Origin: a virus
Direction: 5' to 3' (one strand)
Virus record (IMG/VR): IMGVR_UViG_3300020183_004379
Coordinates: 1-64,000 of that record
DNA: 64,000 bases
Below, piece after piece: positions 6,096 to 42,757 of the stretch (position 1 is its first letter; the number at the start of each line of letters is the position of its first letter). The notes under the pieces were generated by a model. That model had not been told where the DNA came from. It saw only the letters and a list, made by a program, of their open reading frames with translations, and made no database searches. Position numbers and translations under genes: made by a program.

Positions 6096-6096
6096 C

Positions 6097-7167
6097 ATGA
6101 CTTATTCAAGTGGACAAATTATCGATGATGCAGATTATAACAATTTTGTTTACGGTGACAGCACTGGCTCCGGCACCATAAATGTAACCAATAATCTATA
6201 TTACCTTATTGGCCCTGGCAGAGCAGATCGAGGGTTAAATCAAGACTTTTCTGGTTTAGTTCCTGGACTGCCGGGTAGTACCAGTGGAACCATTGGTGGT
6301 GTCCCATACAATGATAGAGTTGGTACGCTTGACCCGGTAGATGCACCAGACGATATTCTTGCTCAACAATGGATTGGTTTTTTTAGTTCTTTGAACAGAA
6401 CAAGATACTATCAAAGCGGTGCTGGCGGTAATGTGTCTCTGGCAACACCTCCTGCATTTGGTAGCAGAATTGATGTTATAGCCAGTATAAACAGTACTTT
6501 GAACTCTGCCAATCTGTGGTTCGCAAGTCCTACTCCAGTGCAAGGTATCAACTCTGTTACCAATGATAATAAAACTGTGGCACTTATTGTGGCAACCACA
6601 CCTGATCCTATATCACGAACTTATACAAGATCTGTGGAATTTTCCAATGGCGGCGATCATGCTCGTTGGTTTTTTAACAGTGGTGGCCAGATTAGAGTTT
6701 CTGTAACTGCAACTAGAGCAACTGGCAGTCGTAGCCAAGCCTTGGCAACCGCACTTCAACAGTTTGGCACCTGCACTTGGGGAGCTTATACCAACAGTGG
6801 ATTTAGCACAAACGACACCCCCTCGCCCAGTGGTGCCAATAAAGGTTACTGGAATACTGGTACTTCTTACTTAACATTAGGTAGCAACACATTGGGTGCA
6901 GGAGCATACTCTACCACGGTGGTAGCTATGGAAGTTCGTGTACCTACCACCGGCGGTGGTGCAACACAAAATGGCGCAGTAGGACGCTTAATAGAATTTA
7001 GGCTCAGTCTAACGAGTAGTGCAGGCGGAACTGGACCAGAACCAGCCTGGTCCACAGATCAATTGGACATAGACATAGCCTTTAATTTTGATATTGTTAA
7101 TAAAACTGGAGCAGGAGCCACTCTTACTCAAACCTGGCAGATCCCGCAAATGAGTGCAATAACTTAA
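6097..7167 (+). CDS. Putative virion structural protein
   Basis: Gly/Thr/Ser rich; ARWFFNSGGQI motif; follows fibre genes; start at ATG 6097. Confidence 0.55.
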   Translation: MTYSSGQIIDDADYNNFVYGDSTGSGTINVTNNLYYLIGPGRADRGLNQDFSGLVPGLPGSTSGTIGGVPYNDRVGTLDPVDAPDDILAQQWIGFFSSLNRTRYYQSGAGGNVSLATPPAFGSRIDVIASINSTLNSANLWFASPTPVQGINSVTNDNKTVALIVATTPDPISRTYTRSVEFSNGGDHARWFFNSGGQIRVSVTATRATGSRSQALATALQQFGTCTWGAYTNSGFSTNDTPSPSGANKGYWNTGTSYLTLGSNTLGAGAYSTTVVAMEVRVPTTGGGATQNGAVGRLIEFRLSLTSSAGGTGPEPAWSTDQLDIDIAFNFDIVNKTGAGATLTQTWQIPQMSAIT

Positions 7168-7186
7168 ACAGCGGATCAGCTGCTTA

Positions 7187-7192
7187 TAAGTA
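7187..7192 (+). promoter_or_regulatory. Late promoter variant TAAGTA
   Basis: 5 nt upstream of ATG 7198 with no SD; heads the GT/radical SAM operon. Confidence 0.5.
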
Positions 7193-7197
7193 AGTGC

Positions 7198-7509
7198 ATG
7201 GAATTAAAAACTCTAGCACAAGTCATTCGTCAGAACACTGATTATCAAAACAACCGACAAAAACTACAAGAGCAGATAAAGACTGATCTTGTTCTTGCTC
7301 ACGCTCACAGTTTATTTCAAATCACTCCAGAACTTATAGCGTTTCTTCATGCCTGGGATCAGGATCAAATTTATGTAGAAGACCAATTTGGAAATCCTAT
7401 TCTTTGCAACAGAACAGAACTATTACACGAAGCAAAACAGCATTATCATAGAACATTGAATCGGTGGCATACATTGCATGAGGAATTAAAACATGCAAGA
7501 AAGATCTAA
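7198..7509 (+). CDS. Hypothetical protein
   Basis: 103 aa ORF coupled to the next gene. Confidence 0.7.
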   Translation: MELKTLAQVIRQNTDYQNNRQKLQEQIKTDLVLAHAHSLFQITPELIAFLHAWDQDQIYVEDQFGNPILCNRTELLHEAKQHYHRTLNRWHTLHEELKHARKI

Positions 7510-8251
7510 AGGCATACTGGCCTACGCCTGCAACACAGCCACAGTGGATTACATAGGCATAGCCAAGCAGACGCTTGCACTAGCTAGTGCTCAGCTGAAC
7601 ATACCATATACTTTAATCACCCCGGAAACACCGTCCAATTGGCAAAATTTTAGAAAAGATATTGACACCAACCAGGCAGTGCCGTGGAACAACTTTGATA
7701 GATACAGATGTTATGAACAATCACCATATGATCAAACTCTGGTTATAGATGTAGATTATCTAGTAACAACCAAGCGACTACTGTCAGTTTTTTGTTCTAA
7801 ACAAAACCTGCTATTGTGTCATAAAAACAACTGCTTGTACGAATCAACCTCTACACGCCAGCAGCTTCACCCGGTTTGGGCCACAGTATTTTATTTTGCC
7901 AGGTCTGTGCAAGCAGAATTGTTTTTTCAGTTGGTAGGCAAGATTCAGCGCAATTGGGAATATTATAGAACTTTTTTTGGATTGCAACAGAGTCAATTTA
8001 GAAATGACTATGCATTTGCTATGGCAGAACTTATATCCAGTGGATACAAATTAACCAAACAAACAGCATTACCATGGCATATCACCACAGTTGATAAGAC
8101 ACCAGAAGAGATTGATGTTAACGACAATTGGATAGTGGTACGAGACTCTGCGAAAGCTTTGATATTGCCAAGACAAGACCTACATGTCATGAGCAAGGCA
8201 TGGCTGCAAACTAGCAAATTACAAAATTTTATTTCAAAGGCCCTAGCATGA
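7493..8251 (+). CDS. GT-A fold glycosyltransferase-like protein
   Basis: SPYDQTLVIDVD (DxD) motif; RNDYAF motif; GT8-like layout. Confidence 0.6.
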   Translation: MQERSKGILAYACNTATVDYIGIAKQTLALASAQLNIPYTLITPETPSNWQNFRKDIDTNQAVPWNNFDRYRCYEQSPYDQTLVIDVDYLVTTKRLLSVFCSKQNLLLCHKNNCLYESTSTRQQLHPVWATVFYFARSVQAELFFQLVGKIQRNWEYYRTFFGLQQSQFRNDYAFAMAELISSGYKLTKQTALPWHITTVDKTPEEIDVNDNWIVVRDSAKALILPRQDLHVMSKAWLQTSKLQNFISKALA

Positions 8252-9069
8252 GTGACCGTGGCTTTGTATGCCTTGCTCAAAATAATTCTAGCACTAATTA
8301 TGTAAAGCTAGCTAAACTTCAATGCATGAGTATCAAGCATCATATGCCAGGTGCTAGCTATACTCTTATAACTGATGCACCCAGCGCAAACACAGTTGAT
8401 AACTCTTTGTTTGATCATGTGATCGTGATGCCAGTGGACTGGGCCAAAGATCAGGATTGGAAGCAAAAAAATGACTGGCAAGTTGGTATGCTGTCGCCAT
8501 ATAGACAAACTATAAAATTAGAAGCCGATGTCTTGATCACAAGAAACATTAACCATTGGTGGAGAATGTTAGAGCATCAAGACATTGTGCTTAGTCTAGG
8601 TTGTAGAGATTATTTTGGACAGCCTGCGACCTCTCGCGATTACAGATATCAATTTGATGCAAACAATTTACCAGATGTATATAGTGGGCTCATGTACTTT
8701 AGGCGCAGCCAAACCAGTTCAGATTTTTTTGCACTGGTCAAGCAATTATTTTGGACCTGGGACGAAGTTAAAAAAGAAATGATCAAGTGTAACGACACGG
8801 GCAGCAACGACATGATATATGCATGTGCAGCAGCCATGCTAGGTACTAACAATGCAACTTTGCCGTCAGCAGATTTTTTTAATTTTGTTCATCTCAAACC
8901 TGCCATAAATGGATTGAAAAATGGAGCAGTGACTGAGCAGGTCAACATAGAATTCAACAATTTTGAAATACGAATAAACGCTCAAGCACAACACTTCCCA
9001 GTGCATTATCATGACAAACGCTGGGGCCTTGAAATACTTAAACAATATGAACATACTTCGAGCATTTGA
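8248..9069 (+). CDS. GT-A fold glycosyltransferase-like protein (paralogue of 7493)
   Basis: SPYRQTIKLEAD motif, YSGLMYF, C-terminal HYH. Confidence 0.6.
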   Translation: MSDRGFVCLAQNNSSTNYVKLAKLQCMSIKHHMPGASYTLITDAPSANTVDNSLFDHVIVMPVDWAKDQDWKQKNDWQVGMLSPYRQTIKLEADVLITRNINHWWRMLEHQDIVLSLGCRDYFGQPATSRDYRYQFDANNLPDVYSGLMYFRRSQTSSDFFALVKQLFWTWDEVKKEMIKCNDTGSNDMIYACAAAMLGTNNATLPSADFFNFVHLKPAINGLKNGAVTEQVNIEFNNFEIRINAQAQHFPVHYHDKRWGLEILKQYEHTSSI

Positions 9070-9409
9070 AATTTTCCAAGAGCAGCAAGCTCAGGTTCAA
9101 AAACTTGAACCACGAGAATTCTATAGGCTCTACTACACAGACAATCATCAACAAGCAGCGTTTGGGCCGCCGTGGCCAGATTTAGATTGGCCTTACATTG
9201 ATATAACAGCAGCACAGGCCACTAATTTATCTCGTTATAAATTAGCAAATGGAAGACTAGAATTGATTGACACAGGCCGTACAGGTAGTGTAAAATACAA
9301 AGAAAATGAAAATGGCCCACATGTGGTGGTTGCCGATCATATGGCATTAGTTGTGGAAACCGGAGAAGAATACCATGCAATCAAACGAGTCTCGGCAGAC
9401 ACTGATTGA
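9047..9409 (+). CDS. Hypothetical protein
   Basis: ORF within a coupled operon. Confidence 0.6.
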   Translation: MNILRAFEIFQEQQAQVQKLEPREFYRLYYTDNHQQAAFGPPWPDLDWPYIDITAAQATNLSRYKLANGRLELIDTGRTGSVKYKENENGPHVVVADHMALVVETGEEYHAIKRVSADTD

Positions 9410-10292
9410 TATTGCTGATCTTGATGTGATATTTCTTACCTACGACGAACCAAAAAAAGAAGAATTCTGGATCAAAATCAAAAACATGGTGCCGTGGGCA
9501 AAGAGAGTGGACGGAGTCAAAGGCTCCGACGCAGCACACAAGTCTGCTGCTGCTGCTAGCGAAACAGATCGTTTTGTTTTGATTGACGGTGACAATATTC
9601 CTGATCCTGCATTTTTTAACAGTCAGCTGGTTCTTGATAACACCAATCATGATAAAGTTTTCCGTTGGCGTGCCAGAAACGCAATCAATGGACTTATGTA
9701 TGGCAACGGCGGAATCAGCTGTTGGACCAAACAATTTGTTAATGACATGCGCACTCACGAAGCCAGTGACGGAGCACCATCTACTGCTGTGGAATTTTGT
9801 TTTGATCCAAACTATTGGGCCATGCATGATTGTTATTCTACCACATATCCAAATGCGTCTCCATACCAGGCCTGGCGTGCAGGATTCCGCGAAGGCGTTA
9901 AGATGTGCCTAGACAGGGGACAACGACCCAGTCTGGAAGAATTTGAACAGAGAATACACAACCGTAATCTTGATCATTTGCAAATTTGGCATGCTGTGGG
10001 ATTTGATGTTGATCAAGGAGCATGGGCCATTGCTGGTGCAAAACAAGGCACATTCATGACCATGCTCACCAGCTGGGACTACACCAAGGTGCAAGATTTT
10101 TCTGAACTGGAATACATGTGGAATCACGAAGTAAACTTGCGTGATCCATTGGAAATCATCGATCACATTGGCGATGAACTTTCATACAGATTGGATTTAC
10201 CGCAAGTGGTTCTAACAAGCAAAGCCAGCAAATTTTTCAAACATCACTACAAAAGCAATTTTGTCAATAAAGGAATAATGGTTCGTGAGTAG
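9375..10292 (+). CDS. GT-A (family 2-like) glycosyltransferase
   Basis: DVIFLTYDEP, FVLIDGDN (DxD), AWRAGFREGVK; GGAG RBS before ATG 9375. Confidence 0.65.
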   Translation: MQSNESRQTLIDIADLDVIFLTYDEPKKEEFWIKIKNMVPWAKRVDGVKGSDAAHKSAAAASETDRFVLIDGDNIPDPAFFNSQLVLDNTNHDKVFRWRARNAINGLMYGNGGISCWTKQFVNDMRTHEASDGAPSTAVEFCFDPNYWAMHDCYSTTYPNASPYQAWRAGFREGVKMCLDRGQRPSLEEFEQRIHNRNLDHLQIWHAVGFDVDQGAWAIAGAKQGTFMTMLTSWDYTKVQDFSELEYMWNHEVNLRDPLEIIDHIGDELSYRLDLPQVVLTSKASKFFKHHYKSNFVNKGIMVRE

Positions 10293-11655
10293 CGATTTCA
10301 AAGCAGCCGCTGAGCTCATGCAAGAAAAATTAGGTACAGGACTCTGTTTGGCCAAATGGCAACAGGTAAGTTTGCATCTCGGCACAGGCATGAACAACAG
10401 TTGCTACCATCCGCCATTGCATGAAATACCAACAGAATTACTTGAATCCAACCCTGGAGTTCTCCACAATACTCCATACAAAAAAGAACAACGCAAAATT
10501 ATGTTGCGTCAAGAACGACCTTTAGAGTGCGGATATTGTTGGAGTGCCGAAGACAACAATCAATTGAGTGACAGGCACTATAGGTCAGGCGAACCATGGG
10601 CAGCTGAGCATTTTGATAAAATAAAGGACAGTACAGGAGAAGAAGATGTCATACCAAGTTATGTTGAAGTTAATTTTAGTAATGTTTGCAACTTAGCATG
10701 TTCTTACTGCTCTCCGCAATTTTCGAGTGTATGGGCACAAGAAGCCAATAAACATGGCGCTTATCCTACAAGCAATCGTCATAATGATCCTGGCTATTTT
10801 GTTGGTCGTAGGAAACCCATTCCCGTCAGAGATGACAACCCCTATGTCGACGCATTCTGGTTGTGGTGGCCAGAATTGTATCCGCGTCTAAAACATCTGA
10901 GGTTGACTGGCGGGGAACCACTGCTAGACTACAACACCTATAGGGTGTTTGATTATGTGTTGGCTTTGCCTAAACCAGATCTGCATCTAGATGTTACCAG
11001 TAATTTTTCAGTTGAAAACAAAGTATTCAACAAGTACATAGATTATGTTAAAAAATTGTGTGGTACTCAAATTGAACATTTCATGCAGTATGTAAGTCTT
11101 GATACTGGTAAAAATTCGCAGGCAGAATACATTCGCCACATGCTTGATGCCTCCTTACTGCTTGATAATGTGCATAGGTTTTTACAAGACATACCTGAAA
11201 AAAATAGTCTTACATTCATTGTGACAATTAATAATTTATCCATATCGGGTCTATATGATCTTTTGGATTGGATCTTAGAATTGCGAGCAAAGTATAGTAG
11301 AACATATCAACGAGTTTGGTTTGATACACCGCTGCTGAGGTATCCCCGTTGGCAAAGTATTCAAACACTTACTCCTGCGTATCAGCACGAATTAGAGAAC
11401 ACCATTGAATGGATGAAAGAACAAACTATGACAGATGGCTTTGTGGGATTCAAAGACTATGAAATTCAACGCATGGAGCGTAATCTTGCCTGGATGAAAC
11501 AACCTCTTGATGACAAACAGTTAGTCACTGACCGGGCCGACTTCTACAAATTTTTTAGTGAACATGATCGTAGACGCAAAAGTAACTTTTTAAGAACATT
11601 CCCAGAAATGAGAGAATTCTGGAGCATGTGTAAATATTATGCCGAAACAGAATAA
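10285..11655 (+). CDS. Radical SAM protein with N-terminal twitch/SPASM-like domain (copy 1)
   Basis: CLAKW..SCYH..ECGYC, then CNLACSYC and GGEP. Confidence 0.85.
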   Translation: MSSDFKAAAELMQEKLGTGLCLAKWQQVSLHLGTGMNNSCYHPPLHEIPTELLESNPGVLHNTPYKKEQRKIMLRQERPLECGYCWSAEDNNQLSDRHYRSGEPWAAEHFDKIKDSTGEEDVIPSYVEVNFSNVCNLACSYCSPQFSSVWAQEANKHGAYPTSNRHNDPGYFVGRRKPIPVRDDNPYVDAFWLWWPELYPRLKHLRLTGGEPLLDYNTYRVFDYVLALPKPDLHLDVTSNFSVENKVFNKYIDYVKKLCGTQIEHFMQYVSLDTGKNSQAEYIRHMLDASLLLDNVHRFLQDIPEKNSLTFIVTINNLSISGLYDLLDWILELRAKYSRTYQRVWFDTPLLRYPRWQSIQTLTPAYQHELENTIEWMKEQTMTDGFVGFKDYEIQRMERNLAWMKQPLDDKQLVTDRADFYKFFSEHDRRRKSNFLRTFPEMREFWSMCKYYAETE

Positions 11656-12979
11656 CGAATCAGATCTCGATTACAAACGCAGAGTGATAGATATAAAATC
11701 TCAATCATTCTGCGGTGCCAAATGGTACAATGCTACCATATGGTTGGGCTCTGGGCAAACAACCAGTTGTCACCATCCGCCTGCGCATGCTATACCGCCG
11801 GTGCAGCAGTTAGAACAAAATCCTAGCTTGCTACACAACACTCCAGAAAAGAAAAAAGATAGGCACCAGATGCAGCAGGGCAAACGCCCTCCTGGTTGTG
11901 ACTATTGCTGGAAAATCGAAGACATGACACCCAATGCGGTGTCGGATCGTGTGTACAAAACTGTTTTATATTCAGACAAGGAGTTAGAAAATGCATTCAA
12001 CACACCATTTAACCAAGATGTCAACCTTCGGACATTGGAAATCTCTTTTGATAGAACTTGTCAGCTTGCTTGCAGTTATTGCAACCCTGCTTTTAGTAGC
12101 ACATGGGTCAATGACATACGCAAAAACGGAGCCTACACTGACTTGGTATCAGACGGGCGCAATCATTTTACTCACACTCATGATCATAGTCAACTTTATA
12201 AATTCCATGAGACTAATCCGTATGTGGAGGCTTTTTTCCGCTGGTGGGAGACAGACCTCCACAGAACTCTCCAAGAACTCCGTATCACCGGAGGAGAACC
12301 TCTTATGTCAGGATATACCTGGAAGTTACTTGACTGGTTCAGGACAAATAAAGGAGCAAGTACAACTAGACTTGCCATTAACACAAACCTCGGCCCACAA
12401 GTAGATGTTGACAAACTTTTGGCCAGTACAGATAGTATCGAGCTCGATGTTTACAGTAGCAACGAAAGTATGGATGCTCAGGCAGAATACATTCGTGATG
12501 GACTAAACATGTTTGAATGGCGCTACAACATGGGCAAGTTAATGTCGTCGGGTAAACTACGAGGTTTGCATGTGATGTGTACTATCAATGCTCTGTGCTT
12601 GGAGAGTTTGCCAGAGTTTTTAGATATGCTTGTAAACTGGAAAAAAGTTTGGGGTAAAAATTTTCCTAGCTTCAGCGTTAACATTTTAAGGTTTCCTAAC
12701 TTCCAGTCGGTGTTGGTGTTACCTGTAGAGATTAGACAACAACATGCAGATAGACTTTCACAGTTTCTAATCAAGCATAAAGATCACAGTTATCTACACG
12801 AGCACGAAATAAACCAGACTTTGCGATTAATTGATTATCTTAAACAATCGACTACGCCCACGGACATACTCAAATTACAAAATGACTTCAAAAACTTTTA
12901 TGCTCAGTATGACAAAAGAAGAAACAAAAACTTTGTAAATACTTTCTCAACCTTAAAAGATTTCTATGACCAAATCTAA
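11639..12979 (+). CDS. Radical SAM protein with N-terminal twitch-like domain (copy 2)
   Basis: CGAKW..SCHH..GCDYC, then CQLACSYC, GGEP, NTN. Confidence 0.85.
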   Translation: MPKQNNESDLDYKRRVIDIKSQSFCGAKWYNATIWLGSGQTTSCHHPPAHAIPPVQQLEQNPSLLHNTPEKKKDRHQMQQGKRPPGCDYCWKIEDMTPNAVSDRVYKTVLYSDKELENAFNTPFNQDVNLRTLEISFDRTCQLACSYCNPAFSSTWVNDIRKNGAYTDLVSDGRNHFTHTHDHSQLYKFHETNPYVEAFFRWWETDLHRTLQELRITGGEPLMSGYTWKLLDWFRTNKGASTTRLAINTNLGPQVDVDKLLASTDSIELDVYSSNESMDAQAEYIRDGLNMFEWRYNMGKLMSSGKLRGLHVMCTINALCLESLPEFLDMLVNWKKVWGKNFPSFSVNILRFPNFQSVLVLPVEIRQQHADRLSQFLIKHKDHSYLHEHEINQTLRLIDYLKQSTTPTDILKLQNDFKNFYAQYDKRRNKNFVNTFSTLKDFYDQI

Positions 12980-14279
12980 ATATCCAAGAGACTATACCTA
13001 TAATAGTCGTGTGCCTATTCACGCAAACCTGCATGAAATGTCCGACAGGCATCAGGACCTGCTGACCATTGATCCTTACTTCTGCATGATACCTTGGATA
13101 CACATGCATGCGTTTCCTGACGGAAGAGCTTATCCTTGCTGTATGAGCGAATATCATATGCCCATTGGTGATCTAAAAAAACAAACCATGCGTAAAGTCT
13201 GGAACAGCCAAGGCATTCGACAGATGCGAGTAAATATGCTTTCGGGTAAACCTAGTGCCGAATGCGGGCGCTGTTATGAACAAGAACGAGCAGGTTTTGT
13301 AAGTATGCGACACAGCACTAGTCAAAATTTTGGACAACATATTGCACTTGTGGATGATACAAAAGAAGATGGAACAGTGGAAGATTTCAAACTGCGGTAT
13401 TATGACATACGCTTCAGTAATGTTTGTAATTTTCGCTGTCGTAGTTGCGGCAGCATTTTTAGTAGTAATTGGTACAACGACGAAGTCAAACTATATGGCA
13501 CTAGAGATCATCCAAGGATCATGTATGCCGGTAGTACAGAGGAAGACATGTGGAAACAGATGCAAGAGCATATTCCTTACCTAGATCAAATCTATTTTGC
13601 AGGCGGTGAACCACTAATCATGGAGGAACACTATCGACTGCTAAATGAACTTGTTAAAAGAGAAATGTTTCATGTAAGACTAGTTTATAATACTAATTTT
13701 AGCAAGCTGGCCTACAAGGATCAAAATGTTCTTGAATTATGGAAACTTTTTAATACGGTAAGCGTAGGTGCAAGTTTAGATGGAAGTGGTGCGAGAGCCG
13801 AATACATACGCAAAGGACAAGATTGGAACGAAACAGTGGAAAATCGCCAGCGTATGTTATCAGTTTGCCCTAATGTTGATTTTTATGTCAGCAGTACAAT
13901 CAGTATATACAATGCTTTGCACATCAGTGATTTTCATAGAGAGTGGGTTGATTTAGGTTTAATCAAACCGCAGGACTTTAACATTAACATACTGCAAAGT
14001 CCAAATTGGTTTCGCATTGATGCATTGCCGGACAACATCAAACAACTTGTTAGAGGAAAAATTGAACAACATATAAAATGGTTAGAGCCGCAGGACAAGT
14101 TGACCAGAGCTACCAGTGGATATCGCGGCATGCTCTCCTTTATGAATGCTCAAGATCTGACTTTGGAATTGCCAGGATTTTTTAACAGAACCTTTGAACT
14201 AGATAATCTTCGTAGTGAAGATTTTTTTGCAACCTTCCCTGAGCTAAAAGGTTTACAACACTATGTTGCCGCATCCTAA
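12966..14279 (+). CDS. Radical SAM protein with N-terminal twitch-like domain (copy 3)
   Basis: CMIPW..PCC..ECGRC, then CNFRCRSC, GGEP, YNTN. Confidence 0.85.
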   Translation: MTKSKYPRDYTYNSRVPIHANLHEMSDRHQDLLTIDPYFCMIPWIHMHAFPDGRAYPCCMSEYHMPIGDLKKQTMRKVWNSQGIRQMRVNMLSGKPSAECGRCYEQERAGFVSMRHSTSQNFGQHIALVDDTKEDGTVEDFKLRYYDIRFSNVCNFRCRSCGSIFSSNWYNDEVKLYGTRDHPRIMYAGSTEEDMWKQMQEHIPYLDQIYFAGGEPLIMEEHYRLLNELVKREMFHVRLVYNTNFSKLAYKDQNVLELWKLFNTVSVGASLDGSGARAEYIRKGQDWNETVENRQRMLSVCPNVDFYVSSTISIYNALHISDFHREWVDLGLIKPQDFNINILQSPNWFRIDALPDNIKQLVRGKIEQHIKWLEPQDKLTRATSGYRGMLSFMNAQDLTLELPGFFNRTFELDNLRSEDFFATFPELKGLQHYVAAS

Positions 14280-15465
14280 AATATGCATACTACCTTGGGT
14301 GAGTGTAGAAACCACACCCACTGGTACCATGCGGCCTTGCTGTTTGTCTACTAAAGAAATTACGCATGACGGACAATTATTGTCTGTTGATCAAGGACTA
14401 AGCACAGCCTATAAAAGTGATAGTATGGTGCAACTGCGGCAGCAGTTTATTCGCGGCGAACAACCTGCTGACTGTGAACGCTGTTGGGCAGAAGAAAATG
14501 CTGGTCGTACTAGTAAAAGACAATGGCACTTGCGAAAGTTTGCTAATCAAACAGCAAAGGTGAATTGGTACGATACACAACCAGACCAGCTTTGGTTTTT
14601 AGACTTGAAGCTAGGCAATATTTGTAATCTTAAATGTCGAATCTGCGGAACATGGAGTAGTAGTCGGTGGGCACAAGAAGAAATAGACTTTCAAACTATA
14701 ACAAATCCAAAGCAAACTCGTGCATATCACCAACTGAAACAAGGGCAATGGCCCAGACAGAGTGATAATTTTTGGCAAGATCTACGCTCCCTGTTGCCTC
14801 AAGTGAGGTATTTTGAGTTCACTGGCGGCGAACCTTTTTTAATTAAAGAACACATTGTTCTATTACAGCAGGCAGTTGTTCTTGGATTGGCTAAAGAAAT
14901 TAGTATTCATTATAATACTAACGGCACAGTATGGGATCAAGATTTAGTAGCAGTATGGCAACATTTTAAGTCAGTAGAAATAGCATTTAGCATTGACAAC
15001 ATCAGAACACGATTCGAATTGGAACGCAGTGGTGCAAAATGGTCTGATGTATGTGGAAATGTAGCTCGTGCCAAATTATTAAGGCAACAAAATAAAAATA
15101 TCAAACTACAAGTATGCATGACTATTAATATACAAAATGTTTTTTATTTTGATGAACTAAGTAACTGGGCTCTTGAGCAAGGATTTGATATGATATATGT
15201 TAACATGTTGCACGATCCGCCACACATGAACATTGGACACATGACTAAAGAAGCAGTTGATCTAGTTACCAATAAATTAAAAAATACTGAATTTCATTTT
15301 GTTTTACAAAATGATGTACAAGGCATAATTCGTTTTATTCAAAATGGTGCAGGAAGCAACGGGCAAGACTTTTGTAATTTTATGAGAAGAACAGATGTTA
15401 ATCGTGAAGAAAATTTTTCTGTAACGCATCCAGAGATAGCTAGGGCTATGGGTTATATATCATGA
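14263..15465 (+). CDS. Radical SAM protein with N-terminal twitch-like domain (copy 4)
   Basis: CILPW..PCC..DCERC, then CNLKCRIC, GGEP, YNTNG. Confidence 0.85.
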   Translation: MLPHPKICILPWVSVETTPTGTMRPCCLSTKEITHDGQLLSVDQGLSTAYKSDSMVQLRQQFIRGEQPADCERCWAEENAGRTSKRQWHLRKFANQTAKVNWYDTQPDQLWFLDLKLGNICNLKCRICGTWSSSRWAQEEIDFQTITNPKQTRAYHQLKQGQWPRQSDNFWQDLRSLLPQVRYFEFTGGEPFLIKEHIVLLQQAVVLGLAKEISIHYNTNGTVWDQDLVAVWQHFKSVEIAFSIDNIRTRFELERSGAKWSDVCGNVARAKLLRQQNKNIKLQVCMTINIQNVFYFDELSNWALEQGFDMIYVNMLHDPPHMNIGHMTKEAVDLVTNKLKNTEFHFVLQNDVQGIIRFIQNGAGSNGQDFCNFMRRTDVNREENFSVTHPEIARAMGYIS

Positions 15466-15500
15466 TTTAGTAATAGTAAAAAACGCAATAGGAAAAAAAC

Positions 15501-16814
15501 TTGATCAGTAGATCTAATCCTAATCTATGCATGGCACCGTGGGTACACACATACCTGAGTCCTCAGACTGAGCGCAGAATGTGCTGTGCTAGTCGTGAGC
15601 CTGCGCAAAACTTTCAACAGTATATCGACACGGCCGCCGGCACCGGGAAGTATATACCAATCACACTGGACGAACATTGGAACGGACCTCACATGCGGTC
15701 CGTAAGAAATCGCATGTTAGCCGGGGAAATCTTACCAGAGTGTGAAGTATGTAATGATAAACTGTTGAACAGTTCTGTGTACAGAGATTATTTTTGGAAT
15801 CTCTTTGCGCACAAATATCCAGAAGTACTATCTAATACTGCGTCTGATGGTAGTACTACCATGTTACCTGTTAGTTGGGATTATCGCTTTTCAAATCTTT
15901 GCAATTTCAAATGCCGTACCTGCGGAGACAAATTGAGTAGCAGTTGGGAAAGCGAACTTAAACAAATGAATGCCGTGAGCAGAGACTATTGGGAACAACC
16001 GGATAATCTATGGATGAAACCTGATGTAAAAAGTGCTATAATTGCATTTCAAGAAAACACAGTTGAACAAGAATTTGCACAGGCAGTTGAAGAACATAGA
16101 GTGGAAGAAGTCTACTGGGTTGGTGGCGAGCCCCTCATGTATGAACAACATTGGAAATACATGCGCCGCATAATTGAGCTTGGAGACGGAAAGACCACTT
16201 ATGCTAGATATAATACTAATCTCAGTCGTGTTAATTATCGGGGTATCAATCTTTATTCCGACATTTTGATCCATTTGCGTGATTGGCAAATTTGTGCTAG
16301 TCTCGACGGCACGAGCAAGACTGGGGAATACATTCGAACAGGTCTTGATTATCAGGCGTGGCTTTCTAACTTTAAGGCCGGAGTTGAAATACAACGATAC
16401 AAAAGGCAGATGAGAATTGACTTTACACTTACTTTGCCTGGCATGTTTGAAGTAGAGAACATTCATAATCTAGCCAAAGAACTAGGCGTAGATATTCTTG
16501 CCAAGGTGGTGTTTAGTTTTAGTCCAGACATATCAATGTCTCCTTTGCTACTGCCCAAGGAACTACTCCATCCTTGGATTGACGAAATCTTGCAGTCCAT
16601 TGATAAAGGACCGTTGCAGGAAATGCTTGAACGACTAAAAACTAGACCTACCTTTGCTGAACAATGGCCAGACACTTGGCAAGCAGGATTGCGTAAAGCC
16701 AAGTTTACAGTAGATAACTTAGAATCACACAGACAAGATACTTACACACTAGAGTGTATTCTAGCACAAAGACCTGAGGTATTGAAATGGTGGCAAAAAA
16801 TCAAGTACAAGTAA
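15501..16814 (+). CDS. Radical SAM protein with N-terminal twitch-like domain (copy 5)
   Basis: CMAPW..MCC..ECEVC, then CNFKCRTC, GGEP, YNTN; TTG start. Confidence 0.85.
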   Translation: MISRSNPNLCMAPWVHTYLSPQTERRMCCASREPAQNFQQYIDTAAGTGKYIPITLDEHWNGPHMRSVRNRMLAGEILPECEVCNDKLLNSSVYRDYFWNLFAHKYPEVLSNTASDGSTTMLPVSWDYRFSNLCNFKCRTCGDKLSSSWESELKQMNAVSRDYWEQPDNLWMKPDVKSAIIAFQENTVEQEFAQAVEEHRVEEVYWVGGEPLMYEQHWKYMRRIIELGDGKTTYARYNTNLSRVNYRGINLYSDILIHLRDWQICASLDGTSKTGEYIRTGLDYQAWLSNFKAGVEIQRYKRQMRIDFTLTLPGMFEVENIHNLAKELGVDILAKVVFSFSPDISMSPLLLPKELLHPWIDEILQSIDKGPLQEMLERLKTRPTFAEQWPDTWQAGLRKAKFTVDNLESHRQDTYTLECILAQRPEVLKWWQKIKYK

Positions 16815-17863
16815 CACTAATCAATAGCGTAGGGAACAAGTTACCTTACATGATTACAACTGAAAACAATTCTTTAGCTTGTGATTGGTTAGCGGCATTG
16901 AATCGTGTGCTTGCCAACGGCCTTAGGTTGAACAAAAGCTACTGCTTCTTGGGTTTTCCTCGTACACTCCGTAGTATTGAATATCTATGTTCAGTATTAA
17001 ACAATTCAGTTTATGCTATTAATACACACGACTGGAAACAGTACGGACTGGCTCCTTACCGAATAGAAGAATGGTTTGCACCAGATGTGGTACGCTTTGG
17101 TCAAGAATATGCAGCGCCAACACAGATGTATCCTGAAATGTTATTTCATAGTACCAAGCACGAGATTATGAATCGTGTGCATAATCATTTTGAAAAATTA
17201 CAAGGCACAATTGATAATCCTAGCAACTACGCAAGACTTGCGCCAGAGCCTATTAAAAAAGCCATTGGTAGATTAAACACAGTTTGTCATGAAATAGAAA
17301 ATCTTGTGTTAAGTCAACGCAAGCATCTACTGCTGCCTGAATGGACCAGGCCTTGTCAAATAACTACATTTGATCATGCGCCTAGATATGAACTTACTGC
17401 GGAACATAGACAATTGTTTTTACAAAATGGTTTTAACAGAAAGTTTGGCGGAGTGTACATGCATTGGGCACAAATTGGCAAAACTTATTTTGAAGTTTTT
17501 CGTGACGAGCATGCTTCCGAACTTACTAACACTGTGTGTGAGGCAATCACGCAACTTAAATACTATAGTGGTGAATTTGATGTTGAATGGGGAAAAACCA
17601 TAATAGATGGAGTGTTCGACTGGCATGACAAACAAATGTTAGAATTCAAACAATGGTTGGCAGACAACGGTATTGATGCTACGGATCCAAACAACAGTCT
17701 TGGTTATCTACCAATTGGACAGATAGATGTAGCTGAAGCATTTGGCACAGATGATCCATTCAAAGTTTGGGATATTTTGTCGGACTATCTAGATATACAC
17801 AGTATAGAAACTGCCGATCATGCATGCGTATATCATCATACCTGGAGAGATGAAGATGCATGA
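16787..17863 (+). CDS. Hypothetical protein in the radical SAM/GT operon
   Basis: 358 aa ORF overlapping both neighbours. Confidence 0.75.
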   Translation: MVAKNQVQVTLINSVGNKLPYMITTENNSLACDWLAALNRVLANGLRLNKSYCFLGFPRTLRSIEYLCSVLNNSVYAINTHDWKQYGLAPYRIEEWFAPDVVRFGQEYAAPTQMYPEMLFHSTKHEIMNRVHNHFEKLQGTIDNPSNYARLAPEPIKKAIGRLNTVCHEIENLVLSQRKHLLLPEWTRPCQITTFDHAPRYELTAEHRQLFLQNGFNRKFGGVYMHWAQIGKTYFEVFRDEHASELTNTVCEAITQLKYYSGEFDVEWGKTIIDGVFDWHDKQMLEFKQWLADNGIDATDPNNSLGYLPIGQIDVAEAFGTDDPFKVWDILSDYLDIHSIETADHACVYHHTWRDEDA

Positions 17864-19187
17864 TATTTTTATTGTGGACCTAGGCTCGCATGATCACAAT
17901 ATACAATCTATCATAGCAAAGTATCCACACGCTCAGGTCACAAGGTTCTACGGAGATGTTCTCAGCACACTAACAAGATGTGTTCGCAAAGCCAACACCA
18001 AACACTTTTGGTTTATCATCAGCTGCGCAGACATTGAAAATTTTGATTTAGACTGGGATCCAACTCCGTGGGAAAATAATCAAATACATGCCTGGCCTAC
18101 TACAAATCAAAAGTATGGGGATGTGTTACTGATTCCAAAACAGCAGTTTTTACAGCAGCAACCAGAAAAATTACATTGGTTTGAACATGTGAACTATCAT
18201 ACAGAAGTGATTGCCAGGGTGCCATGGCCAATTATGGTTTATCATGATAAGGATTTTACCACTTGTGTAAAACAAACCGATTTTGTTAGTGAATATCAAT
18301 ACTTCAGCGCAGAATCTTTTGTCAGTACCAGTACTCATGCAGAACCAGCTCTATGGGGCGAAGAAACCCTGCAATTGATATCCTACTCAGCTGATAATGC
18401 CACTTGTTTAGTACCAAGAGTGGCGCAAAATCATCTACATACACAGGCATATGATTATCCAACTCTAGCCAAATACCCATGCCTACCCTCTCAAGCTCAA
18501 GACATTGTGTTTATCAGCTACGACGAACCACAGGCTGATGAAAACTATGCAATACTGCAAAAACGATTTCCACAAGCCAAACGAGTACACGGAGTTGAAG
18601 GAATGGAGCATGCACTGCGTCGGGCAGCAGAAATCAGCCGTACGCCTTGGTTTTACGCAACATTTGCCAAAACAAGGTTACATGAAGATTGGAATTTTGG
18701 TTTTGTACCAGACCGTTGGCAAGAACCCAAACACTATATTTTCAATGCCATCAACAACAGCAATGATTTGTGTTATGGGCACATGGGTATTATACTTTAT
18801 CACAAGAACCTTGTGCTTGCGGCACCAGACTGGGACGGTATCTCTGGCATGGACTACACCATGAGTTTTGCAACTGAAAGTATTCCAATTGTTAGTGTGT
18901 ATGGTGAATTTGCAACAGATCCTTATAGAGCCTGGCGCACTGCTTTTCGTGAAACAGCCAAATTAACTCAGTGGTATCTGGACAATAACTGTATTGAAAC
19001 CAAATACAGAATTCATGTCTGGTGTAATCATGCCACAGGAGAACATGCAGAATGGGTCATGCGTGGAGCCAAGGACGGTGTGAAATATTTTGAAGATAAC
19101 CTATCAGACACACGAGCTCTGAAACGCATGTTTCGTTGGGACTGGCTCAACGAGCATTTCCAAGAACTTTATGCACATGATCTATAG
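17856..19187 (+). CDS. Two-domain glycosyltransferase-like protein (paralogue of 9375)
   Basis: C-terminal half DIVFISYDEP..AKRVHGVEG..AWRTAFRE matches 9375..10292; N-terminal half looks like a degenerate repeat. Confidence 0.6.
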   Translation: MHDIFIVDLGSHDHNIQSIIAKYPHAQVTRFYGDVLSTLTRCVRKANTKHFWFIISCADIENFDLDWDPTPWENNQIHAWPTTNQKYGDVLLIPKQQFLQQQPEKLHWFEHVNYHTEVIARVPWPIMVYHDKDFTTCVKQTDFVSEYQYFSAESFVSTSTHAEPALWGEETLQLISYSADNATCLVPRVAQNHLHTQAYDYPTLAKYPCLPSQAQDIVFISYDEPQADENYAILQKRFPQAKRVHGVEGMEHALRRAAEISRTPWFYATFAKTRLHEDWNFGFVPDRWQEPKHYIFNAINNSNDLCYGHMGIILYHKNLVLAAPDWDGISGMDYTMSFATESIPIVSVYGEFATDPYRAWRTAFRETAKLTQWYLDNNCIETKYRIHVWCNHATGEHAEWVMRGAKDGVKYFEDNLSDTRALKRMFRWDWLNEHFQELYAHDL

Positions 19188-20034
19188 TAACAGCAACTTC
19201 ATATGCATTTGTGATATTGGTACTGGGTTGTGTACGAGCTTTAACACACTCAACCCAATGTTGTAGTTCGTGCTCTAGCGGACTCAACGCAGAGTCATAA
19301 TCAAATTCAACTGTGTTTCCTTGCTCTGCACTGTTGTGTATAATGCGATTATTATGTATCACCACTTGATTACTGTCCTGGTTCCATTCAATTTGTCCAC
19401 GCGATCCAATGAATATAGTTTCTCGGGTCCGTACAGGCCAACACCAGCTGACATCTATATCATAGCTGATACGATTACTAACACCTGCAAACCACACACG
19501 ATCAAACTGTGTGCCGTTGCTTAGATGCCAGCCATGGGCAGAGGTTACTGTCATGTTGGGCGAGCTAAAACTTTGCACAATGCTTATGTCGTGTGCAGCC
19601 AAACTCAGCACAGGTGTGGTTCTTGTTTGATATATGCCCCAGTTGAGTCTGCGACTGGTAATGTGTTGCAGTGTTCCAATGCTGTTTTTATCAAGACAGT
19701 TTTTTATCAATTGCAATTGAGGATGGTGCAAAAATATATGGCCAACCATGAACAATTGATTTGGCTGTAGTATTAACTGCATTTTGGCCACTTGCACAGC
19801 AGATTCAGCAGCTGGTTTTTCAACATAAACATCATGCCCACGAGACAGTAAATGCACGCATTGATCATAATGATTCCATAATGGCGTGGCCAAAATTACT
19901 GGATCAAGAGTATCGATGTCGTTGATGCTTTGATTATTTTTTATGTCAATGATCTTGGCATCAACTCCCAGTTGAGAGAGACTATGATGAAGCTTTGTAC
20001 CCCAATAGCCTGCACCTACCAACCACATGTTCAT
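19147..20034 (-). CDS. Gfo/Idh/MocA family NAD(P)-dependent oxidoreductase
   Basis: VGAGYWG Rossmann motif, VYVEKP, MVGH, AHDIS. Confidence 0.9.
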   Translation of the reverse strand: MNMWLVGAGYWGTKLHHSLSQLGVDAKIIDIKNNQSINDIDTLDPVILATPLWNHYDQCVHLLSRGHDVYVEKPAAESAVQVAKMQLILQPNQLFMVGHIFLHHPQLQLIKNCLDKNSIGTLQHITSRRLNWGIYQTRTTPVLSLAAHDISIVQSFSSPNMTVTSAHGWHLSNGTQFDRVWFAGVSNRISYDIDVSWCWPVRTRETIFIGSRGQIEWNQDSNQVVIHNNRIIHNSAEQGNTVEFDYDSALSPLEHELQHWVECVKARTQPSTNITNAYEVAVTIDHVHKVLGNAR

Positions 20035-21116
20035 TGCGCGAATGCCTTGATTTGATCTACTATGTAACTGATTTGATCTTCAGTCATGCTATACCAACAG
20101 GGCAAGCTCAATATCTCGTTCACTGTTTTTTCTGCCACAGGGCAGGGTGTGTACCACTGAGAGAAGGCAGGCTGGTTGTGAACAGTGGTGGCATAATGAA
20201 CATTAGTGCCGATGCCCATGTTCTGAAGGTGTCGTTTGAGTTCATCTCTTTTGGGAGTTTGAATAACATACACATAGTAACTGTGTGTGTTGCCAAGTTC
20301 AATACGAGGAATTTGAACATAATTCCTCAACTGGTCAGAATAAAAATTGCACAATCTGCGTTTGCGTTGCAACCAATCTTTAAGATGTGGCAGTTTTGCC
20401 ATCACAATGTTGGCCTGCATGTTGTCTATGCGAGCGTTATAACCAATTTCTTTTATTTCATAACGACCGGTTCTACCATGATCTCTATACACACGCACTC
20501 GGTCCATCAATTCTTTGTTGCCTGTGCAAGCCCCGGCATCGCCCATGGCGCCTAGATTTTTAACTGGGTTAAAACTAAAACAAGTTATATCTGCCATGCT
20601 GCCAACTTTTTCCTGTTTCCAAAAGTTTCCAATACTGTGTGCAGCGTCTTCAACAAGGTAAAGATTGTGCGTTGTGCAAATCTCTCTCAAACGGTCCATG
20701 TTAGGACATTGACCATAAATGTCAACACTGAGCACTGCCTTGGTCGTGGGCGAAATTTTAGAAACCAATTGGTCTAGATCTATTAGATGTGTAAGTGGAT
20801 CAATGTCAACAAACACGGGAGTAGCGCCAACACTCACAATGGCTTCGGTGGTGGCAACAAAAGTATGTGGAGTGGTCAATACTTCGTGACCTGGTCCTAT
20901 GCCAAGAGCCCGCATGGCACATAGTAGAGCAGTTGTGCCTGATCCAGTGGCTGCGCAATCTTCAGCACCAACATATTTTGCAAATGCAGTTTCAAATTTG
21001 GTTGTGTCTGGACCTGTGATAAAGCTGCTGTTAACCACACTGTCAGCAATGGCCTGATTGATATCTACTGCACAATCAAGATACTGTTGATATAGATTAG
21101 TAAAAGGCACATTCAT
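20031..21116 (-). CDS. DegT/DnrJ/EryC1/StrS PLP-dependent sugar aminotransferase
   Basis: SGTTAL, TFVAT, EDAAH, FSFNPVKNLGAMGDAG (PLP Lys), GYNAR. Confidence 0.95.
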   Translation of the reverse strand: MNVPFTNLYQQYLDCAVDINQAIADSVVNSSFITGPDTTKFETAFAKYVGAEDCAATGSGTTALLCAMRALGIGPGHEVLTTPHTFVATTEAIVSVGATPVFVDIDPLTHLIDLDQLVSKISPTTKAVLSVDIYGQCPNMDRLREICTTHNLYLVEDAAHSIGNFWKQEKVGSMADITCFSFNPVKNLGAMGDAGACTGNKELMDRVRVYRDHGRTGRYEIKEIGYNARIDNMQANIVMAKLPHLKDWLQRKRRLCNFYSDQLRNYVQIPRIELGNTHSYYVYVIQTPKRDELKRHLQNMGIGTNVHYATTVHNQPAFSQWYTPCPVAEKTVNEILSLPCWYSMTEDQISYIVDQIKAFAQ

Positions 21117-22054
21117 TTTTTTAACCAATCATAATACCTGCGAAAGCCTTCTTCAATATCTATTTTAGGATCAAACCCAAAATCTCTTCGAGCAGCATCT
21201 ATATTCAATGCGCCCCTGCTGGGAAAGTCTGCATCTTTATCTTGGACTTGTATGCTACCTTGCCCCACTATGTTTACTGCCAATTCAGCTGCTCGTAGTA
21301 AACTATGACTATGACTCTTGGTAATATTGTAAGTTTTATTGTTTGTATAGGCACTACAGGCAGCGGCAACTATACCGTCAGCAGCGTCGTCAACATAGGT
21401 AAAGTCAAGCGTTTCATCAGCTCCATTTACCTTGAGTACTTCGCCTCGCATGGCGCTAAGAATAAACTTGCTGATCACACGATCCTCAACATCTAATTCG
21501 CCGTACACCGCACTAGGACGGATAATGGTATGGCTTATGCCATAACGACGAGTGTAATCTTTAAGCAACCACTCGCCTGCTAGTTTCATTATGCCGTATT
21601 GCCCTTGTGGATTGCACACAGCATCTTCAGTCACTTGATCGTCAAAGTCTCCGTATACCATGCTAGAACTGATGTACACAAATTTGCCCACTTGATGTTT
21701 GACTGATAATTCCAACAGGTTAAGCAGGCCCTCGCTCATAACTCGCGATCCTAGTCGTGGATTTACATTCACAATCTTTTGTCTGGGAAAGCTGGCTAAG
21801 TGGATCACAGTGTCTGGTTTGTGCTTGTCAAACATCCAGTCCATGCCTTGATTGTCTGCTATGTCAACACCGTAGATACGCGATGTTTTCACAATCTTTT
21901 GGATGCGCTGAGGCATAATTATGTCAAGTTCTGCCTGCGGAATCAAACCATAAGTGGTGCGTGTGTCTGTTACAAAAATGTCATGCTGCTGTTCTAATCG
22001 CTGCACAACATTGTGACCAATAAGTCCAAGACCGCCTGTAACAAGAATTTTCAT
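21113..22054 (-). CDS. NAD-dependent nucleotide-sugar epimerase/dehydratase (extended SDR)
   Basis: TGGLGLIG, SSSMVYG, YGIMK (YxxxK), DFTYVDD. Confidence 0.9.
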   Translation of the reverse strand: MKILVTGGLGLIGHNVVQRLEQQHDIFVTDTRTTYGLIPQAELDIIMPQRIQKIVKTSRIYGVDIADNQGMDWMFDKHKPDTVIHLASFPRQKIVNVNPRLGSRVMSEGLLNLLELSVKHQVGKFVYISSSMVYGDFDDQVTEDAVCNPQGQYGIMKLAGEWLLKDYTRRYGISHTIIRPSAVYGELDVEDRVISKFILSAMRGEVLKVNGADETLDFTYVDDAADGIVAAACSAYTNNKTYNITKSHSHSLLRAAELAVNIVGQGSIQVQDKDADFPSRGALNIDAARRDFGFDPKIDIEEGFRRYYDWLKK

Positions 22055-26322: not shown

Positions 26323-26580
26323 CTACTTGGAATCTTTAATTATCTTAACAATTTCTTCCTGTTCTTCATTGTACTTATTCCAGGCATTTTTGATACCATC
26401 ATACAATATCCATTTAGCAACATAGCCAAGTATAATCACTGCGGCAGGAACTGCAAAAAACTGTTTGTACGCATCAGGAGCAGTTAAAGCACAACCAAAA
26501 AGAAACATGGCCAACAGCCAGAACCGTTGCCATGTTTCAAACTGCCGCCATCGCCATTGTAAAAAGTACCAAATCTTCAT
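26323..26580 (-). CDS. Small membrane protein (2 TM)
   Basis: Two hydrophobic segments; ATGA overlap with the upstream gene. Confidence 0.65.
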   Translation of the reverse strand: MKIWYFLQWRWRQFETWQRFWLLAMFLFGCALTAPDAYKQFFAVPAAVIILGYVAKWILYDGIKNAWNKYNEEQEEIVKIIKDSK

Positions 26581-27860: not shown

Positions 27861-27883
27861 GCAGGCTCCTTGTGTGAGTATGT

Positions 27884-27912
27884 ATTATAAAACAGAGCGG
27901 GTTTATGGTCAA
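27884..27912 (-). promoter_or_regulatory. Sigma70-like promoter TTGACC-N17-TATAAT
   Basis: Read directly; AGGAG RBS follows. Confidence 0.75.
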
Positions 27913-27928
27913 ACCCACTCTGTTCATT

Positions 27929-29960: not shown

Positions 29961-30120
29961 GTCGCTGTTGATGCCTGTATTCGCGTTTGAGCCAATATTT
30001 ATATCTGTGCCAATATTCTTTCAAAGAGTAAGGTAGTTCGTGAAACTCTTCGTGCTCACGACAGTTTTCTAGCCAGATGTTACGCAGCCAGTTTCTAAAA
30101 TATTCTTTATTTTTAGTCAC
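29899..30120 (-). CDS. Hypothetical protein
   Basis: 73 aa, GTGA overlap with upstream gene. Confidence 0.55.
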   Translation of the reverse strand: MTKNKEYFRNWLRNIWLENCREHEEFHELPYSLKEYWHRYKYWLKREYRHQQRHGKAYKTKSIVSAQLGHPRT

Positions 30121-42728: not shown

Positions 42729-42757
42729 ATTATAGATTTATTTAGATGTTGTGTCAA
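42729..42757 (-). promoter_or_regulatory. Sigma70 consensus promoter TTGACA-N17-TATAAT with nested TAAATA
   Basis: Perfect consensus read directly. Confidence 0.85.

Follow-up and report, generated by a model that had tools for sequence, protein, structure and literature searches.

What would a jumbo phage do with five radical S-adenosylmethionine (SAM) enzymes encoded one after another behind its tail-fibre genes? This question is raised by a block of 12 open reading frames (ORFs) at positions 7198-19187 (+ strand) in the first 64 kb of the 83.4-kb IMG/VR virus record IMGVR_UViG_3300020183_004379; these 64 kb, the whole stretch of DNA that was analysed, are hereafter called the window. CheckV assigns the record a completeness of 23%, and the whole genome is therefore expected to comprise roughly 360 kb. 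The ORFs lie in the order gA, gB, gC, gD, gE, R1-R5, gF, and gG, so that the five radical SAM genes (R1-R5) are flanked by genes for glycosyltransferase (GT)-like and other proteins. We propose, with moderate confidence, that this jumbo phage uses the block to tailor sugars in the cytoplasm, with five different radical edits, one for each radical SAM enzyme. A preliminary description of the locus, made from its sequence alone, had supposed that the block builds and radically tailors a glycan; the connection with carbohydrates gains support from gene context, but the novelty then seen in the unusual domain arrangement of the enzymes does not.

All five R proteins match the NCBIfam family NF033640 (N_Twi_rSAM, twitch domain-containing radical SAM protein) nearly end to end and above its cut-off of 170 bits, and can thus be regarded as members of this family; a search of the whole record found the same five places. 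Their mutual identity is 21-30%, and judging from their sequences they are tandem, anciently diverged paralogues. When R1-R5 are aligned, the invariant N-terminal residues C21, W25, C40, C82, and C85 (CxxxW ... C[Y/H/C] ... CxxC) precede the equally invariant core motifs C135xxxC139xxC142 and G209-G-E-P212, which agrees with the row of five divergent paralogues, each with a Cys cluster before CxxxCxxC and GGEP, that had been recognized by eye. The position of the Cys-rich module on the N-terminal side of the core is the one that NF033640 requires. Because this family already catalogues such an arrangement, the novelty of an N-terminal twitch had been overstated: we see no difference between the curated family, which is a catalogue entry only, and R1-R5, both having a four-Cys N-terminal module before the core.

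More general models detect the five proteins unevenly. With a cut-off of 21.5 bits, the Pfam SPASM domain is found at the N-termini of R3 (46.2 bits) and R4 (22.8 bits), while R5 (17.1 bits) stays below it and R1 and R2 give no match; similarly, the gathering threshold of PF04055 (29.5 bits) is exceeded only by R3 (31.7) and R4 (37.5), with R1 (23.6), R2 (17.8), and R5 (26.2) below. Six solved sequences are matched at E<=0.01. The nearest are viperin (E 4.1e-7), SkfB (E 5.5e-7), and MoaA (E 3.6e-4), in each case in the core part only, and two of them, viperin and MoaA, handle nucleotides. BtrN is not among the six, and the R proteins are accordingly not assigned to a BtrN-like group. The N-terminal twitch module alone matched no SPASM/twitch protein among solved structures.

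We then asked how constant this set of enzymes is in related viruses. A megablast search of the block against the phage collection gave zero matches, and tblastn with R3 found 28 phage records, all with less than 60% identity. By scanning IMG/VR with R3, 60 loci with 43-83% identity were collected, in which orthologues were counted as present at a coverage of at least 60%. All five R orthologues were detected in 50 of the 60 loci, and in every one of these 50 they stand in the order R1-R5; segments resembling N-terminal-twitch enzymes number five in 35 loci, six in 18, and seven in four. Median identities of the five proteins across the loci range from 51% to 69%, the highest value belonging to R5. 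A quick tree (66 rows) resolves R1-R5 so that each forms one side of a branch (SH-aLRT 96-100; 98 for R1), with R1 and R2 as sisters and R3 as the copy closest to the bacterial homologues found with it. Separate orthogroups and a fixed order in 50 of 60 loci fit five distinct steps better than redundancy.

The partners of these enzymes are conserved as well. Genes gA to gF occur in the same order in 42 of the 60 loci, most of the others being cut by contig ends, and of the 50 loci in which gA is present, 40 have a fibre-like gene upstream of it. The neighbourhood comparison across related phages that had been suggested in the preliminary description shows co-occurrence of the radical SAM genes with both GT-like partners and fibre genes. 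The layout described for the window itself also holds: adjacent ORFs overlap at 10 of the 11 junctions of the block (with starts as listed; the sole exception is a 35-nucleotide gap between R4 and R5), and two genes matching PHROG tail-fibre families, whose products are 48% identical to each other in their N-termini, precede it.

Assignment of the neighbouring proteins to GTs required remote comparisons. gB appears as a paralogue of gC in hhalign (98.5%, E 1.7e-15) and has no profile match of its own in Pfam, NCBIfam, or PDB. The profile of gC weakly matches glycogenin-1, a GT8 enzyme (E 0.002, residues 3-111); in the Atlas, the named clusters closest to gC are GT8, Nucleotid_trans, and nucleotide-diphospho-sugar transferase (0.96-0.98), and gC also matches phrog_1903 (E 2.7e-8). 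Neither gB nor gC can be placed in GT8 (PF01501) itself, as no Pfam or NCBIfam match was obtained at E<=0.01. For gE, an AF2 model (pLDDT 70.5) was compared with known structures using VIA-align, and 48 of the 50 resulting rows are titled glycosyl- or sugar-nucleotidyl-transferases, with middling Z values of 4.4-6.1 over residues 18-168; a PDB profile search with gE gave nothing useful. The protein begins at residue 9 in the Atlas. The C-terminal half of gG is related to gE (blastp E 5e-15; hhalign 99.4%, E 9e-22, residues 225-421), and the DGD motif of gE aligns with ...FAK... in gG, which thus lacks the acidic pair (DxD); with this substitution, the part of gG that resembles gE may be a paralogue that is not catalytic or acts in another way. 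No PDB match was found for gG, and hhalign detected no relation between gE and gC. Taken together, the remote likeness behind the earlier count of four GT-A-like genes is real, being GT8-like for gB and gC and weaker for gE and gG, but all four fall short of the Pfam and NCBIfam thresholds.

Evidence for a sugar context also comes from genes around the block and from accessory genes of related loci. Three genes convergent on gG encode a GFO/IDH/MocA oxidoreductase, a DegT-family aminotransferase, and a short-chain dehydrogenase/reductase (SDR) of the dehydratase/epimerase type; their top NCBIfam matches are UDP-GlcNAc 3-dehydrogenase, PseC, and dTDP-glucose 4,6-dehydratase, all under the equivalog cut-offs, and within the DNA fetched such convergent nucleotide-sugar genes were found in seven of the 60 related loci. 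GalE is detected above its cut-off at 42738-43727 of the window. In ten loci, 90 ORFs have no counterpart in the window, and 54 of them were scanned. The scan identified carbamoyltransferases of the NodU/CmcH type, B12-binding (four) and other (six) radical SAM proteins, two P-loop proteins resembling APS kinase, and five matches to DUF6071, of which three exceed the cut-off; GDSL was matched once, weakly. When the 60 loci were searched by tblastn, 48 proved to contain the carbamoyltransferase. Eleven DUF6071 proteins, once aligned, display Ser, Gly-x-Ser-Asn, and Asp/His motifs, which we take to be the marks of SGNH hydrolases. As a separate observation, a basic ORF of 33-34 residues ending in ...DPFIYK lies directly upstream of the carbamoyltransferase gene in four loci (L026, L040, L042, and L061; e.g. 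L040:14813-14914); the window contains neither this peptide nor the carbamoyltransferase.

Similar associations are seen in cultured phages outside the clade. The gp202 protein of Ralstonia phage RsoM2USA is an orthologue of R2, with which it shares 47% identity along the full length and groups in the quick tree; the neighbours of gp202 are three DUF6071 genes and a carbamoyltransferase gene. In Vibrio phage K566, two proteins above the Pfam GT8 threshold (hhalign found no relation of these two proteins to gB and gC) are interspersed among four distant copies, and in phage KVP40 gene 0274 (PF00534 according to the note of the record), gene 0273, and the radical SAM homologue 0272 lie in a row.

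When 1.84 billion clusters (50% identity) were searched with a profile built from R1-R5, 5,451 representatives were retrieved at E<=1e-30. Two of the 19 multi-domain members that were scanned are fusions with GT domains, namely GT2 (P0175) and Glyco_transf_7C (P0178). Bacterial loci were sought with an alignment of R3 orthologues, a scan of genome contigs with a single protein having yielded one locus only, and 49 ORFs from six loci of bacteria or metagenome-assembled genomes (MAGs) were scanned with Pfam. Carbohydrate-type neighbours (GT2, GT1, PMT_2, DegT, SDR, carbamoyltransferase, or GDSL) occur in five of the six: a Crocinitomicaceae locus combines three copies with a carbamoyltransferase and a GT1-UbiA-GDSL fusion, a Saprospiraceae locus combines three copies with DegT, SDR, UbiA, and PhyH, and GT2 or PMT_2 genes adjoin the homologues in the remaining three. 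One further MAG (G001, holding locus L009) was considered as a cellular context and rejected; it has five copies over the cut-off, yet it is the sole carrier among 101 genomes of its phylum, and its contigs were therefore treated as probable phage DNA in the bin.

Two other features of the bacterial homologues are recorded here in their own right. One Saprospiraceae contig (L094 and L114) carries runs of six to nine paralogues of PhyH-type dioxygenases with GT1-UbiA fusions beside N-terminal-twitch radical SAM genes, and this region may be a bacterial island for glycolipid or glycan tailoring. In a MAG labelled Elusimicrobia, long tandem arrays of proteins in which many TPR repeats are fused to an N-terminal-twitch radical SAM module (L096-L109, L116, and L149; e.g. 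L105:254-13840, with all five proteins scanned being such fusions) form a large paralogue expansion.

As GTs and sugar-tailoring enzymes recur as partners both within the phage clade and outside it (three unrelated cultured phages, several bacteria, and natural fusion proteins), we infer that sugars are the substrates of R1-R5. In such a pathway, nucleotide sugars would be supplied by the host, by the three convergent genes (dehydratase, aminotransferase, oxidoreductase), and by the phage GalE, and the sugars would be transferred by the GT-A-like proteins gB, gC, gE, and perhaps gG. Each R enzyme would carry out a radical edit of its own through hydrogen abstraction from a sugar by the 5'-deoxyadenosyl radical, with its single auxiliary 4Fe-4S cluster handling an electron. 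Oxidation, dehydration or deamination, epimerization, and a change of the carbon skeleton are among the possible edits, and they would take place either on a nucleotide sugar or on the glycan as it grows. Since all proteins of the block are soluble, a hydrophobic stretch of transmembrane grade being absent from all of them (highest KD19, 1.53), a macromolecule of the cytoplasm is the probable acceptor. The most likely candidate is a phage structural protein, for instance one of the adjacent Ser/Thr-rich fibre proteins. The Ser/Thr/Gly-rich g0b, encoded between the fibre genes and gA, has zero family matches in Pfam and PHROG and is poorly conserved (23-44% identity among related loci); it could form the tip of a fibre or act as an adhesin, and it is a candidate for the acceptor.

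Several observations weigh against a sugar-tailoring pathway. For NF033640, no known reaction, substrate, or structure was found in the libraries or the openly readable literature. The GT assignments of gB, gC, gE, and gG are remote and below family thresholds, gE reaching Z values of at most 6.1 and gG having no DxD. gF is conserved like the enzymes (73 invariant columns), yet its function was not recognized in searches of PDB, Foldseek, and VIA-align: there is no PDB sequence match, Foldseek with the gE and gF models gave no match at E<=0.001, and VIA-align relates the gF model to cyclophilin-type barrels (Z 6.0-7.7, 130-153 residues aligned) and helical bundles (Z up to 8.2), again at middling values. 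According to its model, gF would be a beta-barrel with an inserted helical bundle and is probably an enzyme. The 60 loci belong to one clade and are non-independent because they were picked by similarity to R3. The carbamoyltransferase, SGNH-like, APS-kinase-like, and B12 radical SAM genes of the relatives are all missing from the 64-kb window. Among bacteria, no recognizable sugar gene lies near the homologue in Reichenbachiella (L115), the sixth of the loci scanned with Pfam, and many single-copy homologues had no recognized partner with the small tblastn query set used. Moreover, TPR-radical SAM fusions were found in all five proteins scanned on L105, three of the 19 multi-domain members carry TPR or Sel1 repeats, and the homologue at L141, one of the five loci with carbohydrate-type neighbours, also adjoins a TPR protein and an ABC exporter of the C39-peptidase type.

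Most SPASM/twitch enzymes act on polypeptides, and it is conceivable, though in our view unlikely, that R1-R5 do the same, i.e., that their target is a phage protein (fibre, g0b, gA, or gD), itself also glycosylated by the GT-like proteins, in which they would introduce cross-links, epimerize residues, or make other edits. The TPR and Sel1 fusions, together with the kinship to peptide maturases, keep this explanation alive; a partial subtilase in one of the 19 multi-domain members, the peptidase-containing exporter at L141, and the place of the operon behind the fibre genes are likewise compatible with it. The kinship is seen in weak secondary NCBIfam matches of the R proteins to SkfB, PapB, ScmE, and other peptide maturases, all far below the cut-offs, and in the match to SkfB among solved structures. 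However, no PqqD/RRE-type domain was detected by Pfam in R1-R5 at E<=0.01 and a precursor peptide was not found, although a protein substrate might be recognized by other means. An alignment of 14 gA sequences (A7) contains 20 invariant columns and has no cysteine, Ser/Thr, or core-peptide pattern; gA has no family match in Pfam, NCBIfam, or PHROG. Although the position of gD is kept, with an ORF of 114-123 residues between gC and gE in the eight loci aligned of ten inspected, its relatives are 17-27% identical to the window copy and have no core-peptide pattern. In addition, the R enzymes are far better conserved than g0b, and the accessory carbamoyltransferase, SGNH, DegT, and SDR genes are typical of sugar pathways.

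A different possibility is that the block serves to remodel a glycan of the host envelope (O-antigen, capsule, or S-layer glycan) during infection, e.g., to block superinfection, a role that has been proposed for GTs in the hypervariable region of pelagimyophages (PMC7029224). The several nucleotide-sugar enzymes in the window would suit this role, but the block encodes no membrane-spanning protein and, by Pfam/NCBIfam scan and hydrophobicity, no initiating polyprenyl-phosphate transferase, flippase, or polymerase (64 of about 360 kb are covered, so that such genes may be located elsewhere, and host genes could contribute), and we therefore consider it improbable.

The two explanations that follow are weaker. 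The combination of DegT, oxidoreductase, twitch and B12 radical SAM, carbamoyltransferase, and GT genes resembles aminoglycoside and deoxysugar clusters, and a cyanophage is described in PMC12801897 as having 'antibiotic synthesis genes' that comprise an AHBA_syn-family gene, a radical SAM maturase, and an amidinotransferase, which raises the question of whether the product of the block is a free small molecule, e.g., a metabolite that is aminoglycoside-like or otherwise derived from sugar. Since the Pfam/NCBIfam scan revealed no exporter or resistance gene in the block, and a constant place behind fibre genes would have no obvious reason, this is very unlikely. Hypermodification of phage DNA with a glycan by the GT-like and radical SAM proteins is the least probable of all: DNA-glycosylating GTs of phages are well known (cited in PMC12619734) and the window has 7-deazaguanine genes (QueE-like and GTP cyclohydrolase I), but the ThyA homologue adjoining the block is a true thymidylate synthase (365.6 bits against an equivalog cut-off of 327), a pyrimidine hydroxymethylase was not seen in the window, which is part of the genome, and the block sits with fibre genes instead of replication genes.

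The proposed sugar-tailoring pathway can be compared with several known systems. BtrN-type twitch dehydrogenases of aminoglycoside pathways consist of a radical SAM core and one auxiliary cluster with about four cysteines. R1-R5 resemble them in having a core plus an auxiliary module of about four Cys, and their context likewise includes aminotransferase and sugar-modifying genes; the twitch, however, is C-terminal in BtrN and N-terminal in R1-R5. In deoxysugar formation by DesI and DesII, a DegT aminotransferase acts first and a radical SAM enzyme, DesII, which is not known to have an auxiliary cluster, then acts on the TDP-amino-sugar. The DegT aminotransferase and the SDR dehydratase-like gene adjoining the R block recall this logic, whereas the present locus has five enzymes and these are of another family; the window aminotransferase scores 167.7 bits with TIGR04427 PLP_DesI, far below the cut-off of 650 bits. 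With SPASM/twitch peptide maturases (SkfB etc.), viperin, and MoaA, the kinship of the R proteins is limited to the SAM-binding core.

Among phages, the aquatic, T4-like pelagimyophages have GT8 glycosyltransferases and radical SAM cassettes by their tail-fibre genes, the GTs being read as modifiers of the host O-chain (PMC7029224). In that text the radical SAM cassettes are mentioned in passing, whereas here the five enzymes form the fixed, ordered core of a jumbo-phage clade; the two regions are likened by description. In mycobacteriophages, GT genes located by structural genes are reported to accompany glycans on capsid and tail proteins (Freeman et al. 2023, as cited in PMC12619734). The present locus resembles that system in that GT-like genes adjoin structural genes. 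To our knowledge, radical SAM enzymes are not involved in virion glycosylation of mycobacteriophages. A study of the N-terminal-twitch radical SAM family was not found in the openly readable literature, and neither the amoC-phage preprint nor the moraphage paper mentions such a system.

A late-type promoter had also been proposed in front of the block. The element upstream of gA, TATAAGTA, is a single match against 1.62 expected by chance, and the T4 consensus TATAAATA has one exact match in the window, at 29996-30003 on the opposite strand. We compared 41 distinct gA-upstream regions, including that of the window, with 51 control stretches inside R3. ATAA[AGT]TA within 25 nucleotides of the gA start was detected in 12 of the 41 regions (window included) and in none of the controls, which shows that an element precedes gA. 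A sigma70-like -35/-10 pair (14/41 vs 0/51) and a terminator-like hairpin (18/41 vs 1/51) are enriched as well, and these enrichments over the R3 controls imply that gA heads its own transcription unit. Judging from the upstream sequences, promoter class differs among subclades. Thus, the element before gA is upheld by the survey, but its assignment to the late class is not, considering that the window element agrees with the T4 late consensus at seven of eight positions only and that sigma70-like pairs occur in 14 of the 41 regions. In many relatives, a hairpin-plus-T-run terminator after the fibre-tip gene is followed by a promoter-like element so near the gA ATG that the leader of the gA mRNA may be absent or very short.

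Coordinates of the block and its surroundings are given in Table 1. In addition to tail-fibre-like proteins and several nucleotide-sugar enzymes, the window encodes a family B DNA polymerase, thymidylate synthase, dihydrofolate reductase, 7-deazaguanine genes, and isocitrate lyase. The genes for the QueE-like radical SAM protein and GTP cyclohydrolase I (35749-36645 and 41922-42689, - strand) suggest 7-deazaguanine modification of DNA. Genes of the isocitrate lyase (354.9 bits) and fatty-acid desaturase families overlap by a few bases at 56624-58602 (- strand) and are possible auxiliary metabolic genes, and a DUF2201 metallopeptidase/VWA-like protein adjoins an AAA ATPase (phrog_1297) at 26577-29050 (- strand), a pair that is conserved in phages. 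The 'ferredoxin' label of phrog_3704 for the gene at 58634-59269 (- strand; E 3e-85) is doubtful; its translation has no Cys-cluster motif, and it was therefore not counted as a reductant for the radical SAM enzymes.

Table 1. Location and main characteristics of genes and elements in and around the radical SAM block (window coordinates)
Feature	Position	Strand	Characteristics
Tail-fibre-like gene pair	862-3444, 3498-6095	+	PHROG tail fiber families, E 3e-29 and 1.6e-11; upstream context, outside the enzyme block
g0b	6088-7167	+	359 residues, Ser/Thr/Gly-rich; S+T 22.3%, G 12.3%; after the fibre genes
Promoter-like element TATAAGTA	7185-7192	+	7/8 match to T4 late-promoter consensus, 6 nucleotides before gA start
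gA	7198-7509	+	103 residues; conserved; found in 50/60 related loci
gB, GT8-like (GT-A) glycosyltransferase-like	7493-8251	+	invariant D86-x-D88 (alignment A3)
gC, GT8-like / nucleotide-diphospho-sugar transferase-like	8248-9069	+	E92-x-D94 at the DxD place
gD, small fast-evolving protein	9011-9409	+	probable start at invariant Met, about 9047
gE, GT-A-like fold protein	9351-10292	+	invariant D79-G-D81 (alignment A5); probable start Met9 at 9375
R1, N-terminal-twitch radical SAM enzyme	10285-11655	+	NF033640 302.6 bits
R2, N-terminal-twitch radical SAM enzyme	11639-12979	+	NF033640 284.4 bits
R3, N-terminal-twitch radical SAM enzyme	12966-14279	+	NF033640 407.2 bits; Pfam SPASM at residues 40-104
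R4, N-terminal-twitch radical SAM enzyme	14263-15465	+	NF033640 338.2 bits; Pfam SPASM at residues 8-75
R5, N-terminal-twitch radical SAM enzyme	15501-16814	+	NF033640 286.0 bits; TTG start as listed
gF, conserved	16787-17863	+	alignment A2; AF2 pLDDT 84.5, pTM 0.80
gG, two-part protein	17820-19187	+	gE-like C-terminal half; N-terminal 225 residues match nothing
GFO/IDH/MocA oxidoreductase	19147-20034	-	Pfam GFO_IDH_MocA 28 bits; convergent on gG
DegT-family aminotransferase	20031-21128	-	Pfam DegT_DnrJ_EryC1 358.7 bits; convergent
SDR dehydratase/epimerase	21113-22054	-	Pfam Epimerase 148.2 bits; convergent

A wider and more tentative proposal is that the N-terminal-twitch family is a large, unrecognized class of glycan- or glycoprotein-editing enzymes, of which this phage clade would use five in a fixed series, together with novel GT-A-like proteins and gF, for an oxygen-independent, hyper-modified sugar decoration of its tail fibres or of other virion proteins; we regard this as rather unlikely. 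If sugars or glycoproteins are indeed edited beside GTs, a very large enzyme family without assigned chemistry would gain a testable class of substrates, and new radical sugar chemistry would become available for glyco-engineering. It would also mean that phages devote at least five oxygen-sensitive Fe-S enzymes to the decoration of a late cytoplasmic product, adding a new layer of chemical disguise for virions or infected cells. Because the KVP40 group and Vibrio phage K566 are cultured carriers of smaller versions, the question is experimentally tractable. A virion glycan that depends on radical SAM enzymes, if true, would be the first of its kind and could tune host range or shield the particle.

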